Source of the DNA: a virus
Taxonomy: Duplodnaviria > Caudoviricetes
Virus record (IMG/VR): IMGVR_UViG_3300021375_000006
Direction: 5' to 3' (one strand)
DNA: 64,000 bases
Each line of letters begins with the position of its first letter. Position 1 is the first letter of the stretch. The notes under the pieces were generated by a model. The model saw only the letters and a program-made list of their open reading frames with translations. It was not told where the DNA came from and searched no databases. The translations under genes were made by a program, and so were the position numbers. Below, in pieces: positions 56,562-64,000 of the stretch.

Positions 56562-56801
56562 TTAAGTCATCCAACCGCCAGATTCTTCCCAGTCTTTATG
56601 AGAAGATAGCATTGAATATGCCTCAAAAGAAAGTGTTACTTCAACATAACCCCCGGTTATAGATTGGGGACACTTAGACTCGCTTAGGTACCAGTTAGGT
56701 GCATCTTTAATCCTACCATTCAAAAAATCAAATAGTGGATCTATGTGCATGTGGTGTACCCATATATTGATATGCATACATGTCATGTTTGCTTTACCCA
56801 T
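56562..56801 (-). CDS. Hypothetical protein (79 aa)
   Basis: ORF track. Confidence 0.55.
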   Translation of the reverse strand: MGKANMTCMHINIWVHHMHIDPLFDFLNGRIKDAPNWYLSESKCPQSITGGYVEVTLSFEAYSMLSSHKDWEESGGWMT

Positions 56802-57726
56802 TTTCTACGCTAAATCTTTTTTTGTCAAAGTTAATTGTACTTTTAATATCTTTCTTTTGGTACATATCTATCTGTTCGATTTCAGATGATTGTAATTTTT
56901 TACCGTAATGCTCTTGATAGACTTTTTTATAGATAAGTGCCATAACACCATAGAGAGGAGCAAACTCTGAAGACATTTCCACTACCCATGGTTTCCCATC
57001 TGTATCAACCATTAGGTCTATTGAGTATATGTCTAAACCTTCATGTGCCTTATTCATTTCCTGAAATACTTCATTCCATTCCTTTGGCATTTTACTAAGA
57101 TCTTTTAACACATACTTAAAGAATAGCTTGTCTTCTTTTTTCTTTGTCATCTCTTTGGTCTCCTTGTTACCATGTACTCTTTGTACCCACATAACAGGTT
57201 CACCTCTCCACATCATTATTCTGTGTTCTTCATCGATGTCTATCTTCTCGCTGAAGACTTCAAAGTCAGAAAGGTCCATATCATTAGCTTTTCTAAGGGT
57301 ATCTATTTTAATAATACCTTGGCCCGAATATCTGTTATCGGGTTTCGCTATGATAGGGAACTTTAACTGATCTAAATCTTTTGCATCTGAAACTGTCTTT
57401 GGCACATGTTTAGAATCTTTGTGAGTCTCATGCCATTTTACTTTCGATGCGATTTCCATCTTCTTCTCCTTAGGATTATAGATTAGGTCTTTAGGAGTAC
57501 CCGCATCTAATAGTCTTTTAGTGTGGATATTACAAAAGTTAATCACAGGCATATCAGACTTAAATGGCTGATCGCCCTTCGTAAAGAGTTGCATAAAATT
57601 TCTAGTGTGTGCAGATTTATCTGTTACATACTTAAAGTCTGTAAGCTCTGTAGATACACACATAACAACTTTGTGCAGTTCTCCATTTTTCTCGTTAAGA
57701 AATGTTTGGAAATCTTTAATTTTCAT
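56794..57726 (-). CDS. ATP-grasp ligase (RimK-like) with head-targeting-type leader
   Basis: FPIIAKP...SGQGI, EKID...EHRI, SIDLM...VVEMSS; N-terminal MKIKDFQTFLNE; late motif upstream. Confidence 0.75.
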   Translation of the reverse strand: MKIKDFQTFLNEKNGELHKVVMCVSTELTDFKYVTDKSAHTRNFMQLFTKGDQPFKSDMPVINFCNIHTKRLLDAGTPKDLIYNPKEKKMEIASKVKWHETHKDSKHVPKTVSDAKDLDQLKFPIIAKPDNRYSGQGIIKIDTLRKANDMDLSDFEVFSEKIDIDEEHRIMMWRGEPVMWVQRVHGNKETKEMTKKKEDKLFFKYVLKDLSKMPKEWNEVFQEMNKAHEGLDIYSIDLMVDTDGKPWVVEMSSEFAPLYGVMALIYKKVYQEHYGKKLQSSEIEQIDMYQKKDIKSTINFDKKRFSVENG

Positions 57727-57745: not shown

Positions 57746-58174
57746 TTAAGACGGGAATACTTCAATCGTTCTTTCTTCTCTAACTAAATCTGCCCACTTG
57801 CCTTCGTATCTTGTACCTTTGACAATATGGTTATCAACCCAGTGATAGTTACCACCTCTTGGTTTACCCATTAGTAGACCATGGTATTTGAATCCATGTT
57901 TGTTTAACCAAGCTTCTGTAATATCTCTTACATCTTCAGTTCTTGAAGTAAAGAAAGTAATTACATGGCCTTCGTCAAACCATTTATTTAAAGTTTCTTT
58001 TGCACCTGCATAGGGTAAGACTACTGACATTCTCTCTGGCTCTTCGTTTGGTACATCATCTGTAATTGTGCCGTCAATGTCAATTAGATAGTTCTTACAC
58101 CCATCGTTTAAAACAGGAGAGACTAGGTGTCCGTCATCTCCTATTGTTTCGTTAAATTTAATTTCTCTTTTCAT
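57746..58174 (-). CDS. HAD-superfamily phosphatase (Bacteroidota so-called phosphoheptose isomerase type)
   Basis: LIDIDGTI, FFTSR, LLMGKPRGG...WVDN. Confidence 0.75.
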   Translation of the reverse strand: MKREIKFNETIGDDGHLVSPVLNDGCKNYLIDIDGTITDDVPNEEPERMSVVLPYAGAKETLNKWFDEGHVITFFTSRTEDVRDITEAWLNKHGFKYHGLLMGKPRGGNYHWVDNHIVKGTRYEGKWADLVREERTIEVFPS

Positions 58175-58187
58175 ACTTTATTGTAAA

Positions 58188-59615
58188 TTAAGGTTCTTCG
58201 TGGTTTCTAATAAATGATACAATAATATATCTCTTACCACCTGTAATTGGCCTCGCGCCATGTCTATGTGTAATCATTCCAGGGTGAAGTACTGCTGTAC
58301 CTATTTGCTCTGGATTGGATAATTTTTGATACTGAGGGAACCAAGTTCCACCGCCACTAAATTCATCATTTAATTTAATAACCATCGTTAGGTGGCTTCT
58401 ATCATGGTGTAGAGATAGGTGTGATTGTCTAGTCGTTGTATACCTAGCCATGAAGTTTTCATTTGAGAATGCGTCCCATTGTTTACCTTCTAGGTTCCAT
58501 TGGTGAATTGCAAGAGGCCTAACTACTTCATGTAATACTTTATTGTAAATTTCATCTAGGCCAATATCTTGTAGTAAGACATCATTAGTTGGATAGTGTT
58601 CGTGTCTGTCAATAGTCCACTTATCTTTAGCCTCTGCTAGAGCAATTGCTTCTCTACAGAATCTAGGAGTAAATAACGGGAATTCATATACGTTATCTCC
58701 TCTATCTGAAACCATTAAGTCATACTCTCCCTTTGATACTGATAGATTAATATACTTCTCTTTCCATTCATCCCAATTAGATATATCTAATATTTCAAAA
58801 TACTCTGATGTATCAATATCAAATTCTGGTCTTACATATTCTGTTTGAGTTTGTTCAGGTTCCTGGTTAATTATTTCACGTTGGTTTGGACTACCCACTT
58901 CTGGTTCTATTGTAGAACCTCCAAGTTTACCACCTCTATTCTGTACTATAAAATTTGGATCGCGTGTTGCTAATATAGTTAATGATTTTGGAAATAGTTC
59001 TTGAATATCATGTCTTCTATGCGGATAACCTAGTGCACTTAAATACTCATCTACAGGAATCACGTTTTCTTTTAATCCACCTGATAATAATAGTTTTGCT
59101 ACATTAGGGTTTTTAATAATATATGCATGTGCATTATACCAGTGTCTAGGATAAAGCCAAGTTTCATTAATAACCTCTTCTTCAACTTCTTTTTCAATTA
59201 TATCTCTACCTAATAAGGCAACATCCCAATTAGTATCTACTGGAGGCTCTGCCAACATTGACATTGAATTACCTTCATTAAAGAAATCTTCTTCTAATAT
59301 TAGTATTGGACCTAGCCCATCGAATACTGCAGCTTCCCATACTTTTCTATGTGAAATTGCACAACCAACCTCTCCTGGTAAAACAGACCTTCTCCACCAA
59401 TCATTCCAAGAATAAGGTGACTCAGGGCCCACATCCCATTTATCATAAACGGTATAACCCTCTTTTATATCACCTTCTCTACCATCAAATGCAGAAATAA
59501 TTTCATACGGGGTATTTTCATAAAACGCACATGATTGTAACTTTTCTTCTATTGTTTGCTGAAGACTCTCTCTATTTGAGTCTAAAGCTATAACATAAAT
59601 TTTATTAATTCTCAT
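58188..59615 (-). CDS. GT25 glycosyltransferase fused to PLOD-type 2OG-Fe(II) lysyl-hydroxylase-like domain
   Basis: GEVGCAISH, LILEED, IPVDEYL; NFMARY...HHD...GGGTWF...HPG.ITH.H...RYIIVSF. Confidence 0.85.
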   Translation of the reverse strand: MRINKIYVIALDSNRESLQQTIEEKLQSCAFYENTPYEIISAFDGREGDIKEGYTVYDKWDVGPESPYSWNDWWRRSVLPGEVGCAISHRKVWEAAVFDGLGPILILEEDFFNEGNSMSMLAEPPVDTNWDVALLGRDIIEKEVEEEVINETWLYPRHWYNAHAYIIKNPNVAKLLLSGGLKENVIPVDEYLSALGYPHRRHDIQELFPKSLTILATRDPNFIVQNRGGKLGGSTIEPEVGSPNQREIINQEPEQTQTEYVRPEFDIDTSEYFEILDISNWDEWKEKYINLSVSKGEYDLMVSDRGDNVYEFPLFTPRFCREAIALAEAKDKWTIDRHEHYPTNDVLLQDIGLDEIYNKVLHEVVRPLAIHQWNLEGKQWDAFSNENFMARYTTTRQSHLSLHHDRSHLTMVIKLNDEFSGGGTWFPQYQKLSNPEQIGTAVLHPGMITHRHGARPITGGKRYIIVSFIRNHEEP

Positions 59616-59636: not shown

Positions 59637-59663
59637 TTATACTAAAGTAACGCGAAAAGTTTC
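59637..59663 (-). promoter_or_regulatory. GAAAC-N17-TATAA promoter motif (GT25-hydroxylase)
   Basis: 17-nt spacer. Confidence 0.65.
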
Positions 59664-61198
59664 TCGTCCTCTAATAAGCTGTTATTATTTTTTTTAATAT
59701 AGTATTGATCTACCTCTGTTAAGATACCCATAATATTTTTATAGTCTTCAGATGCTAACATTTCTTCTTTCGAATTAAAGTGTTTAATACCATCAAGATC
59801 AAAATATTTTAAATCACCATTTTCGTCTATTGCACAATTATATACATTTACTATATCAGTTAAAAGTATATTATGTTCTAGGGCTGCTTTAAAATGTTTT
59901 AAAATCTGTGGGTAAACTCCAATATCTACTGGCCACTTCCAGTCTTCCCAATCTGGATATATGTTATATTTAGCACAAAGAACTTGATCTGCTTCATACC
60001 TCTCTTGGACAGCAAATAATACACCCTTGTAGATTCCAACGTCATATAATTTAGGTACTATTCCTAAATCATATAATATTGAGTTTGTTTTTTTAATAAC
60101 TAATAATTGCTTCATAGATGAAACAGGTGATGAAGCCCCAAAAGAAAATGGGTCAAGCGTTGCTTTACATGGGTAAATAAATTTTAGTAGATAATCATCA
60201 TAATAAAAAACTTTATGATAATATCTAAAATCACCGTAATTATCAAAGTGTCCACGGTATCTGTACCTGTCTTGGATTAATTTTTTAGTATTGATATTAT
60301 CTGTATTGACCTTTATATCACATTCATTTACCTCAGCAATTACCTTTCCTGTTTCAGCCCACCAGTCTTTATATTCTAGCTTAAATTTATCTCTCTCAGG
60401 TTTGTGATATTTGTTTATTTGAACATCGTTTAAATAGCAATCAATACCTAACCCTACATCTTGCATGTATTTCTTTTGAATCTTATTACCAAGCTTAGCA
60501 TCTATAGTATCAACCCAAGTACCTACCTGTCCAATCCTAAAATCATGAGTTGTATATTTAACATCTGTATTAGACTCGTTAGGTAGTCTTACATCAACAG
60601 GTTTACTAATAGTATGTCCTAAGAATTTTGCTATCTTGTTTACAGAAGAATCATACTCATTTATTATCTCTTCAAATGAAATGATTTCCATATCAAGATC
60701 AAGAAGTTCTTTGCTCATATAAACAGAAAACCAGTTCTTGTAATAATCTATTAATAGATCTAAAAAGTTATCATGTTTTTTATCTGAAGACTTATATCCA
60801 TCAAAATCAAAGTTTTCATAAAAGTCAGAGAAAGAAGTATATTTATTTTTAATATGGGGCCTATGATAACATGAAGTCATTATATCTCTAACATCTCTAT
60901 AGATTAAGATTATTTTTGACTCAGAAAATATTTTTTGTAGTTTTTCTTCGTCACCTAAATCTACAGAATGGTTGTGTTTGTAAAAATTTCTATAGTTATG
61001 AGAATGCGTCCATGTTACTTTATTACCTTCATTCATCCACCCATATAAACCGTTAAGTCCTGGCCATTCAAACTTAGTATAATCAAGATAATTTTTATCG
61101 ATACTTTCATATCCAAAATTATTTACTATTAGATCTACTAATAAGTGAGTACCTCCTCTTCTTGCAGAAACTACTATAACATTCTTTTTAGAATCCAT
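59642..61198 (-). CDS. Sulfotransferase fused to protein-kinase-like (sugar kinase) domain
   Basis: ARRGGTHLL (5'-PSB), YRDVRDIMTS (3'-PB), FRIGQVGTW; C-terminal LLKF...VPKLYD...TDIVNVYN...YFDLD. Confidence 0.7.
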   Translation of the reverse strand: MDSKKNVIVVSARRGGTHLLVDLIVNNFGYESIDKNYLDYTKFEWPGLNGLYGWMNEGNKVTWTHSHNYRNFYKHNHSVDLGDEEKLQKIFSESKIILIYRDVRDIMTSCYHRPHIKNKYTSFSDFYENFDFDGYKSSDKKHDNFLDLLIDYYKNWFSVYMSKELLDLDMEIISFEEIINEYDSSVNKIAKFLGHTISKPVDVRLPNESNTDVKYTTHDFRIGQVGTWVDTIDAKLGNKIQKKYMQDVGLGIDCYLNDVQINKYHKPERDKFKLEYKDWWAETGKVIAEVNECDIKVNTDNINTKKLIQDRYRYRGHFDNYGDFRYYHKVFYYDDYLLKFIYPCKATLDPFSFGASSPVSSMKQLLVIKKTNSILYDLGIVPKLYDVGIYKGVLFAVQERYEADQVLCAKYNIYPDWEDWKWPVDIGVYPQILKHFKAALEHNILLTDIVNVYNCAIDENGDLKYFDLDGIKHFNSKEEMLASEDYKNIMGILTEVDQYYIKKNNNSLLEDEKLFALL

Positions 61199-63224
61199 CT
61201 ATGCCATCAGTTCTAGGGTTATCTTCTGTGATGCCGTTTCTTTCGAGCATCTTTTTATAGTCATCATTTATATTTCTGTCAAGAGTATTATATTGAGTAT
61301 GCCAGTGGTATTTTAACCATTGGAACCCACCATAATCATATTTCCACGTATCATAAAATGGTTTATATTGTTCATAGTGTGCCCTTAAAACTTCTTCACT
61401 AAAGAATGTGTGGAAATTACCCACATTTTTATGAATAGACCATTTATATTTTCTAGAATCATCTATACCAAGTGGTTCTAACTCTAAAAACTCAGAAACT
61501 TCACTTAAAAATTTACCTTGGTTCCAAAGTACATCTTCATATCTTAATACAATACAGTTATCTCCAAATTGTTTTGTATATGATTCTATTAATTCTGTTT
61601 GTTTATCTGCAATTTCATTCATGAATTCTACAACTCTAATATCGTCTGGATTATTTGTGTAGTCTTTTGAATATATGTGAAGTCCATTATCAAAATTTAA
61701 AATGTTCATAGCAACTTCTCTAGGGTCAGATATAACTAAAAATACTTTAGTTTTATTTACATCAATAAACTCATCAATAACTTTATCTTCTAATGGAACA
61801 TGGCTCTTAGACCATTTCGTTAGGTCAACTGTTTCCGGAAAGTTTTCTCTAATTAACTCTTTAGATAATTCTGAACCAACCATCCTCCAGCCTACTAAAA
61901 GATATTCATTATTTTCATTAGGTTTCCTAAGCCATGTATCAGGTCCATTTCGCCATATACCAGGTCTTTCTTCTTTCCAATCTCCCTGTAAACCCATTGA
62001 ATTTGTTACAGGCCTTACAGTCTTTTCTAATAACTTATTTTTTATTTTAAAATATTGTTCTGCATTATTTGTTATATGTGAATGCCATGCTTCTCCTGCT
62101 ACATCCCATGTAAAATACCCTGCGGAATGTTCAGCATTACGTAATGCTTTATTTTTTAATTCTGTATCTATATCTAATAAAATCTTAGCGGCAAGATCAA
62201 ACATCGTATCATAATCACTAAATGGCATAATTACCCCATCTTTAACAACTGATGGTAAAGCCGCTTTATCTGAAACTATACATAAGACCCCATTCATTTG
62301 CATTTCCAATGCGGTTATACAAAATGTTTCTTCATAATCAGAAAGATATAACCAATATGTAGCTTTTTGAGCAGCAGAATATAGTTCTTGTTTAGAAACA
62401 GATCCCATATCTGTGACTCCCTGATCCTTTAAATCATTTAATTTATCTACTACACCATCTATATTATACCAACTTTCCTGTCCAGTTTCATTTGGATCAG
62501 AATATTTTGGATAATAAACATCTAAGGTTGCATTAGGCATTACCTTTTTAATTTTATACCAATTATCTAATAAAGCTACTAAACCTCTATCTACAGCAGA
62601 TGCCCATATAAATTTATTTGGATCTTTAATAGTAGGTGCATTGTAGAAATCTTCTTTATTAATTCCATTAGGAATGGACATAAGTCCACCTCGCCATGTT
62701 GAATTATCTAGTCTAGCTGCATTTGCAATTTGGTTAGTAATTAAATTAGGATATTTATTTTGAATTATATTTTCTACAACATGGTTAGATGCCCACTCTG
62801 ATGGAGTTGTAATACATTGTATTTCGGTTAAATGTTTAAACTCTTCAAGACCTTCTATTGGTCTACCTTTATACCATGGTTCATATTCAGTATTGTGCAT
62901 CCAAATCCATTTATATTTTGGATTTAGATCAGCATCTTCTAAGTAATTTAAAAAGTTTATATAGTTTACACCTATTACTATATCAAAGTAATCACTAGGT
63001 CTATGTAAAAAATTAAATTCAAATTCACCTAGGCCATGCCAAGTAACTCCATCAATCTTTTCACCATGTGAACTTTCAACCTCTCCGGCTACATGTACTT
63101 CATGGCCAAAATTTGATAATCGTTTACTTATCTCTATTACTGCTGTTTCTGTTCCGCCTAAACCGGTAGTTGTATTACCGTTAAATGTTTCAAATCGGTA
63201 ACCTGTCCAAAATAGTATTCTCAT
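61188..63224 (-). CDS. GT4 (GT-B) glycosyltransferase fused to sulfotransferase-like domain (start revised to MRILFW)
   Basis: GLGGTE...GHEVHV, WASAVDRGL, EETFCITALE; C-terminal GWRMVGSEL, ISDPREV, LRYEDV, VGNF. Confidence 0.75.
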   Translation of the reverse strand: MRILFWTGYRFETFNGNTTTGLGGTETAVIEISKRLSNFGHEVHVAGEVESSHGEKIDGVTWHGLGEFEFNFLHRPSDYFDIVIGVNYINFLNYLEDADLNPKYKWIWMHNTEYEPWYKGRPIEGLEEFKHLTEIQCITTPSEWASNHVVENIIQNKYPNLITNQIANAARLDNSTWRGGLMSIPNGINKEDFYNAPTIKDPNKFIWASAVDRGLVALLDNWYKIKKVMPNATLDVYYPKYSDPNETGQESWYNIDGVVDKLNDLKDQGVTDMGSVSKQELYSAAQKATYWLYLSDYEETFCITALEMQMNGVLCIVSDKAALPSVVKDGVIMPFSDYDTMFDLAAKILLDIDTELKNKALRNAEHSAGYFTWDVAGEAWHSHITNNAEQYFKIKNKLLEKTVRPVTNSMGLQGDWKEERPGIWRNGPDTWLRKPNENNEYLLVGWRMVGSELSKELIRENFPETVDLTKWSKSHVPLEDKVIDEFIDVNKTKVFLVISDPREVAMNILNFDNGLHIYSKDYTNNPDDIRVVEFMNEIADKQTELIESYTKQFGDNCIVLRYEDVLWNQGKFLSEVSEFLELEPLGIDDSRKYKWSIHKNVGNFHTFFSEEVLRAHYEQYKPFYDTWKYDYGGFQWLKYHWHTQYNTLDRNINDDYKKMLERNGITEDNPRTDGIDGF

Positions 63225-63225
63225 A

Positions 63226-64000
63226 TTATTTCTTTTTCTTCTTCTTCTTACTACCACCAATACCACCGATTATCTTACCAGCTTTTTTGCCAGCATTACC
63301 GGCAGCATTACCAGCATCTTGTATAGGTTGAACTACTGGTTGAGCTGCTCTAGCGGCTTCATCTTTTTTTCTTTGTAATTCTGCTGCGGCTGCATCTGCT
63401 TGTCTTTTAGATTCTGCTGCGGCTGCATCTGCTTGTCTTTTAGATTCTGCTGCGGCTTCGTCTAATCTAAGTTTTTCTGCTGTTTCTTCTGCTAGTTTTT
63501 GAGCCGCTTCTTGTGCTGGATTAGTATTAACACTTACTGAAGTATCTACATCAACCCCGACTAAAAGTGCTACTTTTCCGTCAACACCGACTGTTGCAAC
63601 TCCATCATCCATCGTAGCTCCACCGCCAACTGCGGCTCCTGCTTGAACCCCAGCTGATACTCCAGCTCCAATTTCAGCACTATTACCATCGTCATCAGAT
63701 ACTGTATTAGATGCTCCAACTCCAACTGATGCTCCAGCTACTGCTCCTGCATGTCCTTCTGCTCCATCCATACCAACTTGTCCACCAGCCGATACTCCAG
63801 CACTTGCTTGAGCTCCTGCATGAACTTCGGTTTCATTTGAAATATCTCCATTTTCTACTGTATTAGATGCACCAACTTCTACTGATGTTCCAACTTCTGC
63901 TCCAGCTTCTACTTTGGCATTTCTACCATCGAATCCAGCTTCAGCGCCAGCTTCTACATGTGCTTCTGCATCTGCATGTGCTTCCTGTTTAAGTTCAAAG
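63226..64000 (-). CDS. Gly/Ala/Val alternating beta-repeat protein with coiled coil and poly-Lys tail (5' end outside window)
   Basis: The frame stays open from 63999 to the stop at 63226 (hand-translated extension FELKQEAHADAEAHVEAGAEAGFDG...). Confidence 0.8.
   Translation of the reverse strand, partial: FELKQEAHADAEAHVEAGAEAGFDGRNAKVEAGAEVGTSVEVGASNTVENGDISNETEVHAGAQASAGVSAGGQVGMDGAEGHAGAVAGASVGVGASNTVSDDDGNSAEIGAGVSAGVQAGAAVGGGATMDDGVATVGVDGKVALLVGVDVDTSVSVNTNPAQEAAQKLAEETAEKLRLDEAAAESKRQADAAAAESKRQADAAAAELQRKKDEAARAAQPVVQPIQDAGNAAGNAGKKAGKIIGGIGGSKKKKKKK
63378..63457. repeat. 33-bp coding tandem repeat (AAAESKRQADA, ~2.4 copies)
   Basis: Unit attctgctgcggctgcatctgcttgtcttttag. Confidence 0.9.

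Follow-up and report, generated by a model that had tools for sequence, protein, structure and literature searches.

A sulfotransferase fused to a protein-kinase-like domain in large uncultured marine phages, a candidate enzyme for tailoring fibre glycans

Analysis of a 64,000-nt stretch of viral DNA (IMG/VR record IMGVR_UViG_3300021375_000006; the whole stretch is called the window here) revealed a 518-aa protein in which an N-terminal domain with the fold and every cofactor-binding motif of sulfotransferases dependent on 3'-phosphoadenosine 5'-phosphosulfate (PAPS) is followed by a protein-kinase-like (PKL) domain, the two folds being known and the domain architecture new. The window is rich in A+T (30-38% G+C), carries nearly all of its genes on the minus strand and comes from a large uncultured phage; baseplate, helicase and PhoH genes are among its phage genes, and the helicase has its nearest relatives in an uncultured 462-kb phage and in Lak and other jumbo phages. 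A preliminary description of the same DNA had recognized the fusion gene by the motifs RRGGTH, RDVRD..TS and FRIG.VG.W, followed by LLK, VPKLYD (residues 381-386), QE (residues 398-399), TDIVNVYN and YFDLD. Translation of the exact coordinates verified the open reading frame (ORF) at 59642-61198 and recovered every one of these motifs, a set far beyond what chance would produce. The gene and its features are as follows.

59642..61198 (-): whole sulfotransferase/PKL fusion gene; ORF with ATG start, 518 aa
60461..61198 (-): N-terminal PAPS-type sulfotransferase domain, residues 1-246, from Pfam PF00685, PDB profile matches and Foldseek
61145..61165 (-): 5'-phosphosulfate-binding (5'-PSB) loop ARRGGTH, residues 12-18, aligning with QRSGTT of retinol dehydratase
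61004..61006 (-): H65, invariant histidine and candidate catalytic base of the sulfotransferase, a role suggested by position only
60872..60898 (-): 3'-phosphate-binding motif RDVRDIMTS, residues 101-109, aligning with RDPRDVAVS of retinol dehydratase
60515..60541 (-): FRIGQVGTW, residues 220-228, equivalent of the PAPS-binding RKGxxGxW, aligning with IRKGKAGCW
60269..60460 (-): helical linker, residues 247-310, with conserved H265 and P267, from model secondary structure
59645..60268 (-): C-terminal PKL domain, residues 311-518, from an AlphaFold2 (AF2) model and the kinase matches of Foldseek and VIA
60182..60184 (-): K339 of LLK, invariant, candidate ATP-binding beta-3 lysine on the second N-lobe strand (residues 336-341)
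59837..59857 (-): DIVNVYN (D448...N454), catalytic-loop equivalent, invariant; in non-significant hhalign register with GDPHRGN of WaaY
59789..59800 (-): DLDG (D467-G470), equivalent of the metal-binding DFG, following strand 463-465, in register with IDLSG of WaaY

Over residues 5-246 the protein matches Pfam Sulfotransfer_1 (PF00685) with E=1.1e-11 and 45.1 bits (cut-off 22), covering profile positions 2-249 of 255, and the same family is present in all full-length homologues tested. A profile made from the N-terminal domains alone and searched against the PDB matches retinol dehydratase and SULT2A-type enzymes, and the alignment brings three motifs into register with retinol dehydratase, namely ARR[S/G]GTH with QRSGTT, YRDxRDxxxS with ARDPRDVAVS and FRxGxxGxW with IRKGKAGCW. 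The 5'-PSB loop has arginine in place of lysine, as does active retinol dehydratase. A model of the full-length protein (predicted local distance difference test, pLDDT, 87; predicted template modelling score, pTM, 0.88) retrieved SULT1C1, SULT7A1, retinol dehydratase and the heparan sulfate (HS) enzyme HS 3-OST-1 in Foldseek at probability 1.0, and its pTM suggests that the two domains are held in a fixed arrangement. Conservation was read from two motif alignments, both with 26 homologues down to 33% identity and the second with added members at 32-34%. In the first, R13, R14, G16, T17 and H18, as well as F220 and W228, do not vary, and the loop residues change little or not at all once the most divergent members are added; H65, placed by the model on the strand that follows the first pair of helices, and R101, D102, D105 and S109 are invariant in the second. 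Because the binding residues hold in this way at 32-34% identity, the predicted PAPS site is not degenerate, and the PAPS-binding motifs named in the preliminary description are intact.

The C-terminal part was modelled in AF2 as residues 250-518 folded alone with 36 homologues (pLDDT 89.3, pTM 0.88), and is predicted to form a bilobal protein-kinase-like fold. Its best PDB matches in Foldseek are all kinase-like (CDK1, WbdD, LKB1-STRAD, CurKC and RIOK2; E ~3e-4, probability 1.0). In VIA, a structure search that is independent of Foldseek and covered 48,161 chains, the top 50 rows hold kinases only, including Rio2 (Z 9.8), IRAK4 (9.0), Rio1 and Bud32 (8.9) and WaaP (8.0), and a second look gave Z>=5 for 993 of 1000 chains, with IRAK4 at 9.8 and PRPK/Bud32 at 9.2; the best Z of 9.8 spans 180-193 aligned residues. 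Because no one kinase family stands out structurally, we place the domain as a deep outlier of the PKL superfamily. Its named neighbours in the ESM Atlas are WaaY and viral RIO1-type clusters, and the only Pfam family that its members touch is PF12260, the FAM69/PIP49 kinase domain, with sub-threshold matches in 6 of 13 members (best E=4e-4). PDB searches with the whole protein or the C-terminal profile gave chance matches and no kinase. The kinase-like lobe of the preliminary description is thus present as a fold, while the narrower label attached to it, that of a Kdo/WaaP/APH-like kinase, is not supported as family membership: the profile comparisons are non-significant and the Z-score is tied with those of Rio, Bud32 and IRAK4. 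Given the non-significant hhalign comparisons with WaaP, WaaY and an 18-member WaaY profile, we do not assign the domain to the Kdo/WaaP family.

Across the family, members at 32-34% identity included, K339, D448, N454, D467 and D469 are invariant. In the model, K339 lies in strand 336-341, D448...N454 comes after strand 444-446 and D467 after strand 463-465; their assignment as kinase residues was made from secondary-structure position and a weak alignment with WaaY, not by superposition. In that non-significant alignment (hhalign E=0.09-0.13), D448, N454 and D467 are in register with GD...GN...IDLSG.

The distribution of the C-terminal domain is narrow. When its profile was compared with 1.84 billion representative proteins, 27 reached E<=0.001, and each of these was either a protein of about 500 aa that carries the domain in residues ~240-500 or a truncated piece. 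The fusion is therefore obligate, the domain being found only joined to the sulfotransferase or in fragments of such a protein. Full-length fusions occur in metagenomes as 69 clusters at 90% identity, on contigs of up to 193 kb; the relatives come from marine metagenomes, and we retrieved 26 IMG/VR loci that carry the fusion. A pattern-based scan of one genome for each of 185,579 prokaryotic species, which is not proof of absence, gave no homologue of the C-terminal domain. Neither tblastn against 50,697 deposited phage genomes nor the families of PHROGs contained a counterpart of the fusion, the record nearest to the window (G001) has no homologue of it, and in the PDB and BFVD no structure matches both domains together. 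Literature searches likewise gave no description of a phage sulfotransferase-kinase fusion, in agreement with the earlier remark that the architecture is not known from characterized phages, and the literature and databases searched contain no description of a phage sugar coat modified with both sulfate and phosphate. The C-terminal domain is a new PKL family, orphan in sequence and confined to phages.

The genes around the fusion, and the fibre gene that accompanies it in relatives, are listed below; loci of related phages are designated by L numbers and their records by G numbers.

61188..63266 (-): upstream partner, a GT4 glycosyltransferase with a sulfotransferase-like domain (~61191-62009), from Pfam and comparison with relatives
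58188..59615 (-): GT25 glycosyltransferase fused to a 2-oxoglutarate (2OG)-Fe(II) oxygenase, downstream of the fusion, in place of the relatives' plain GT25
57746..58174 (-): HAD-family phosphatase, co-directional, 13 nt downstream
L013:3892-5886: tail fibre with S74 chaperone, candidate acceptor protein, with homologues in at least 15 loci

A second sulfotransferase-like gene always precedes the fusion gene. In the window it makes up the C-terminal domain (~270 aa) of the GT4 protein, and relatives encode the same domain directly upstream of the fusion, either as a separate gene or joined to GT25. The stop of the upstream gene and the ATG of the fusion overlap by 11 nt, and the two genes are probably translationally coupled. 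Because it has the motifs R-x-SGS, DPRE and RYED, sub-threshold matches to PF00685 in 4 of 10 members, and named ESM Atlas neighbours that are nearly all Sulfotransfer_1 clusters, the partner domain is probably a second, more diverged sulfotransferase; a profile search of the PDB with this domain returned chance matches to eIF1 only. The domain has been joined independently to two glycosyltransferase families, GT4 and GT25. In three related loci (L008:2531-4087, L010:6440-8008 and L013:6422-8008) the open frame of the partner runs on upstream into a GT25 domain and has no ATG at its start.

A GT25 gene stands immediately upstream of the partner in L001, L004 and L007, and a second one follows the fusion in L001, L003/L004, L007, L008, L010 and L012-L014/L018, so that the common order of the cassette is GT25, sulfotransferase-like partner, fusion, GT25. 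On at least 15 related phage contigs the pair of partner and fusion lies between GT25 genes and downstream of Ser/Thr-rich tail-fibre genes, and a tail fibre rich in Ser, Thr and Ala, bearing a Peptidase_S74 chaperone (endosialidase-type) at its C-terminus, is encoded 1.5-3 kb upstream of the cassette in at least 15 loci. The lineage of the window departs from the common order in having GT4 where relatives have the first GT25, and in having the second GT25 fused to the oxygenase. A gene for an ATP-grasp protein (R2K/YheCD-like, sub-threshold; 56794-57726, minus strand) lies downstream of the cassette, co-directional and tightly spaced, and this protein and the HAD phosphatase may belong to the operon of the cassette. 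Directly upstream of the GT4 fusion, at 63226-63999 on the minus strand and running off the window, is a low-complexity protein rich in Gly, Ala, Val and Glu, with repeated AAAESKRQAD units, a C-terminal run of eight lysines and no PHROG match. A tie between the module and collagen modification was considered and rejected, given that the fusion also occurs in a complete 327-kb relative with neither a collagen Pfam match nor a homologue of the GT25-oxygenase; neither the window nor the 8 kb around each related locus contains a collagen-like ORF (at least 8 G-X-Y repeats).

The donor for sulfate transfer could be made in part by the phages themselves. The preliminary description had pointed to cysC, the gene for adenosine 5'-phosphosulfate (APS) kinase, as a gene to look for, and it was found in two of five related phage records that carry the fusion (PF01583), among them the only complete one, though not inside the 64-kb window.

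L029:4743-6598: APS kinase of record G002
L028:4694-5290: APS kinase of record G004

No ATP sulfurylase of the Sat type (PF01747) was present in the five records. The 128-kb record G002 has, after the APS kinase gene, an SGNH-like ORF and genes for an HxGH nucleotidyltransferase (117 aa) and a DUF2061-like membrane protein (73 aa), and this group may be a compact module for sulfate activation.

On these grounds we propose, at a probability of about 0.5, that the fusion protein is a cytoplasmic bifunctional glycan-tailoring enzyme that would sulfate and phosphorylate hydroxyls of a glycan, the likeliest acceptor being a glycan on the phage's own fibres. The N-terminal domain would transfer sulfate from PAPS, supplied at least partly by the phage-encoded APS kinase, and the C-terminal domain phosphate from ATP. 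Their common target, with the sulfotransferase-like partner encoded immediately upstream acting alongside them, would be the hydroxyl groups of a short chain of sugars assembled by the flanking glycosyltransferases, which are GT4 and GT25 in the window and two GT25 enzymes in most relatives. The fibre glycan is the likeliest acceptor because most relatives have genes for Ser/Thr-rich tail fibres just upstream of the cassette, and its modification would give an anionic coat. The proposed function is read from motifs and synteny. The preliminary description holds in its essentials, with the dual activity on one polypeptide remaining a prediction; its suggestion that a glycan is the target is strengthened because the GT25 and GT4 glycosyltransferases conserved on the flanks support it independently.

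A number of observations weigh against this proposal, and the first concern the kinase-like domain. The alignment and model contain no glycine-rich loop (G-x-G-x-x-G), and the segment before strand 330-332 reads D-x-R-Y-x-H-K at lower model confidence. In the family alignment, helix 350-377 has no conserved acidic residue that could serve as the alpha-C glutamate. The domain reaches no kinase Pfam threshold, and hhalign comparisons of its profile are non-significant (WaaP E=0.47, WaaY 0.089, 18-sequence WaaY profile 0.13), and in sequence it is not significantly linked to any bona fide kinase family. The top structural neighbours, Rio2 and Bud32/PRPK, are largely ATPase-type PKLs. Taken together, these features would suit an enzyme in which only the sulfotransferase transfers a group and the kinase-like domain is an ATPase, a nucleotide-sensing regulator, a substrate-docking module or the seat of another PKL chemistry such as AMPylation. 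We regard this as unlikely: all members of the family keep the complete Lys/Asp/Asn/Asp set, as pseudokinases seldom do, and kinases without a glycine-rich loop are known, one of them among the structural matches (6m7z). Some active PKLs also lack both the glycine-rich loop and the alpha-C glutamate.

The acceptor is the second point at which the proposal can be challenged. GT25, GT4 and PKL kinases are typical content of operons for the lipopolysaccharide (LPS) core, and a host glycan is a possible acceptor; the same two chemistries could be directed at an envelope glycan of the host, such as the core of LPS or lipooligosaccharide (LOS), or intermediates of O-antigen or capsule on the cytoplasmic side of the membrane. 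Such an enzyme would remodel the cell surface during infection, for instance to block superinfection or to prevent re-adsorption of progeny. According to its Pfam description GT25 is primarily a family of LPS/LOS galactosyltransferases, the waa operon of E. coli combines genes for GT4 enzymes with those for two PKL sugar kinases, WaaP and WaaY, and searches by fold or features place both of these and WbdD among the neighbours of the phage domain; the 518-aa fusion also has no signal peptide, as expected of enzymes at the cytoplasmic face. Against this, synteny of the cassette with tail-fibre genes holds in at least 15 loci, the 2OG oxygenase joined to the downstream GT25 of the window speaks for a protein-linked glycan, and the loci examined showed no genes for a flippase, a ligase or polyprenol-linked sugars. 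We consider modification of the host envelope, and the remodelling during infection that would follow from it, improbable.

The fibre-glycan proposal is also weakened by a distant clade, L017 (the complete 327-kb genome) and L019, at 39-43% identity, in which no glycosyltransferase lies within 8 kb of the pair and the flanking genes encode VWA-domain proteins and a class I ribonucleotide reductase. In favour of a glycan target, a Sulfotransfer_2 gene (PF03567), of the carbohydrate type, lies beside the pair in L019.

L017:6300-7112, L017:12694-14940, L019:3186-3926 and L019:6895-9198: distant-clade flanking genes (VWA-domain, class I ribonucleotide reductase and, in L019, Sulfotransfer_2)

Finally, the nearest solved relatives of the N-terminal domain (retinol dehydratase, SULT1C, SULT2A and SULT7A) are enzymes of small molecules, as would be expected if the fusion detoxified or tailored a metabolite in the manner of cytosolic SULTs and APH-type kinases; this we judge very improbable in view of the conserved synteny with glycosyltransferase and fibre genes, and neither the fusion nor its family members have an APH/ChoK match in Pfam. 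The acceptors might instead be side chains of a phage structural protein (Ser, Thr or Tyr, or a hydroxylysine made by the neighbouring oxygenase), in which case the fusion would combine a protein sulfotransferase with a protein kinase. The neighbours of the C-terminal fold are mostly protein kinases, there is the weak match to the FAM69/PIP49 family of secretory-pathway kinases, Ser/Thr-rich fibres are encoded nearby, and the arginine of the 5'-PSB loop is found in tyrosylprotein sulfotransferases as well. On the other hand, the sulfotransferase-like domain of the partner has repeatedly been joined to glycosyltransferases, from two different families, and the fusion scores far lower with PF13469, the family to which tyrosylprotein sulfotransferases belong, than with PF00685. 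A protein acceptor therefore seems to us decidedly unlikely.

Of the systems with which a glycan-tailoring fusion can be compared, the O-antigen-capping kinase-methyltransferase WbdD of E. coli O9a (PMC3482155; PDB 4azw, 4azs and 4azt), a bifunctional enzyme, is the closest analogue in logic, not a fellow member. Like the fusion, it combines a PKL sugar kinase with a second group-transfer domain in one polypeptide, acting on a glycan from neighbouring glycosyltransferases, and its chains rank 2, 4, 5 and 11 in the Foldseek search with the phage C-terminal domain. In contrast to the fusion, its second domain is an S-adenosylmethionine-dependent methyltransferase, the order of the domains is reversed, and the protein is bacterial and membrane-associated through a coiled coil, with no detectable sequence similarity. 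For the kinase domain alone, WaaP and WaaY are the closest functional analogues. These and the Kdo kinases (PF06293 and PF06176; PDB 6dfl) are small single-domain PKL sugar kinases encoded among GT4-type glycosyltransferase genes; WaaP has a Z of 8.0, a WaaY cluster is an ESM Atlas neighbour, and in the weak alignment with WaaY the catalytic D...N and the metal-binding D occupy the same register. They differ in having no Pfam match to the phage domain and only non-significant hhalign scores (E 0.09-0.47), and no fusion of these kinases to a sulfotransferase is known; the phage domain, for its part, lacks both the histidine of H-x-D, with T-D instead, and the glycine-rich loop.

Among the highest structural scores are those of Rio1/Rio2 and Bud32/PRPK (PDB 1tqi, 1zp9, 3en9 and 7sza; Z 8.9-9.8 over 165-181 aligned residues), which resemble the phage domain in small size and a trimmed C-lobe. 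Sequence identity to them is 8-15% with no profile match, their roles are in the biogenesis of ribosomes and tRNA, where they serve mostly as ATPases, and IRAK4 ties with Rio2 at Z 9.8, so that no single kinase family stands out. On the sulfotransferase side, the cytosolic SULTs and retinol dehydratase (PF00685; PDB 1x8j, 3bfx and 5x2b) and HS 3-OST-1 (1vkj) have the fold and the three PAPS-binding motifs in common with the N-terminal domain, retinol dehydratase also the Arg-type 5'-PSB loop (RSGT); they differ in identity (12-18%), in the absence of a kinase fusion and in their substrates, which are small molecules or heparan sulfate. A further comparison is with glycan kinases of the animal secretory pathway: the xylose kinase FAM20B, POMK and the FAM69/PIP49 family (PF12260) have the PKL fold and phosphorylate sugars of glycans that carry sulfate as well. 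These enzymes are eukaryotic and lumenal and are not known to be fused to sulfotransferases, and the PF12260 matches of the phage domain lie below the Pfam threshold.

Sulfation is barely known in phage biology. We suggest, tentatively and as a possibility rather than a probability, that a clade of large marine phages builds short sulfated and phosphorylated tail-fibre glycans, a polyanionic coat resembling glycosaminoglycans, with its own enzymes, the fusion among them, and its own supply of PAPS. If this is true, it would be, to our knowledge, the first sulfated glycoconjugate made by a bacteriophage, and the C-terminal domain would represent a new, phage-only family of glycan kinases. As a kinase-like family that is invisible to sequence searches and confined to the fusion, it offers a clean target for structural and biochemical work, and the repeated fusion of the partner domain to two glycosyltransferase families marks these proteins as candidate enzymes acting in sequence. 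A phage route leading from sulfate activation to modified fibre glycans would add a new layer to the ways in which phages may tune adsorption, avoid aggregation and evade recognition in seawater.

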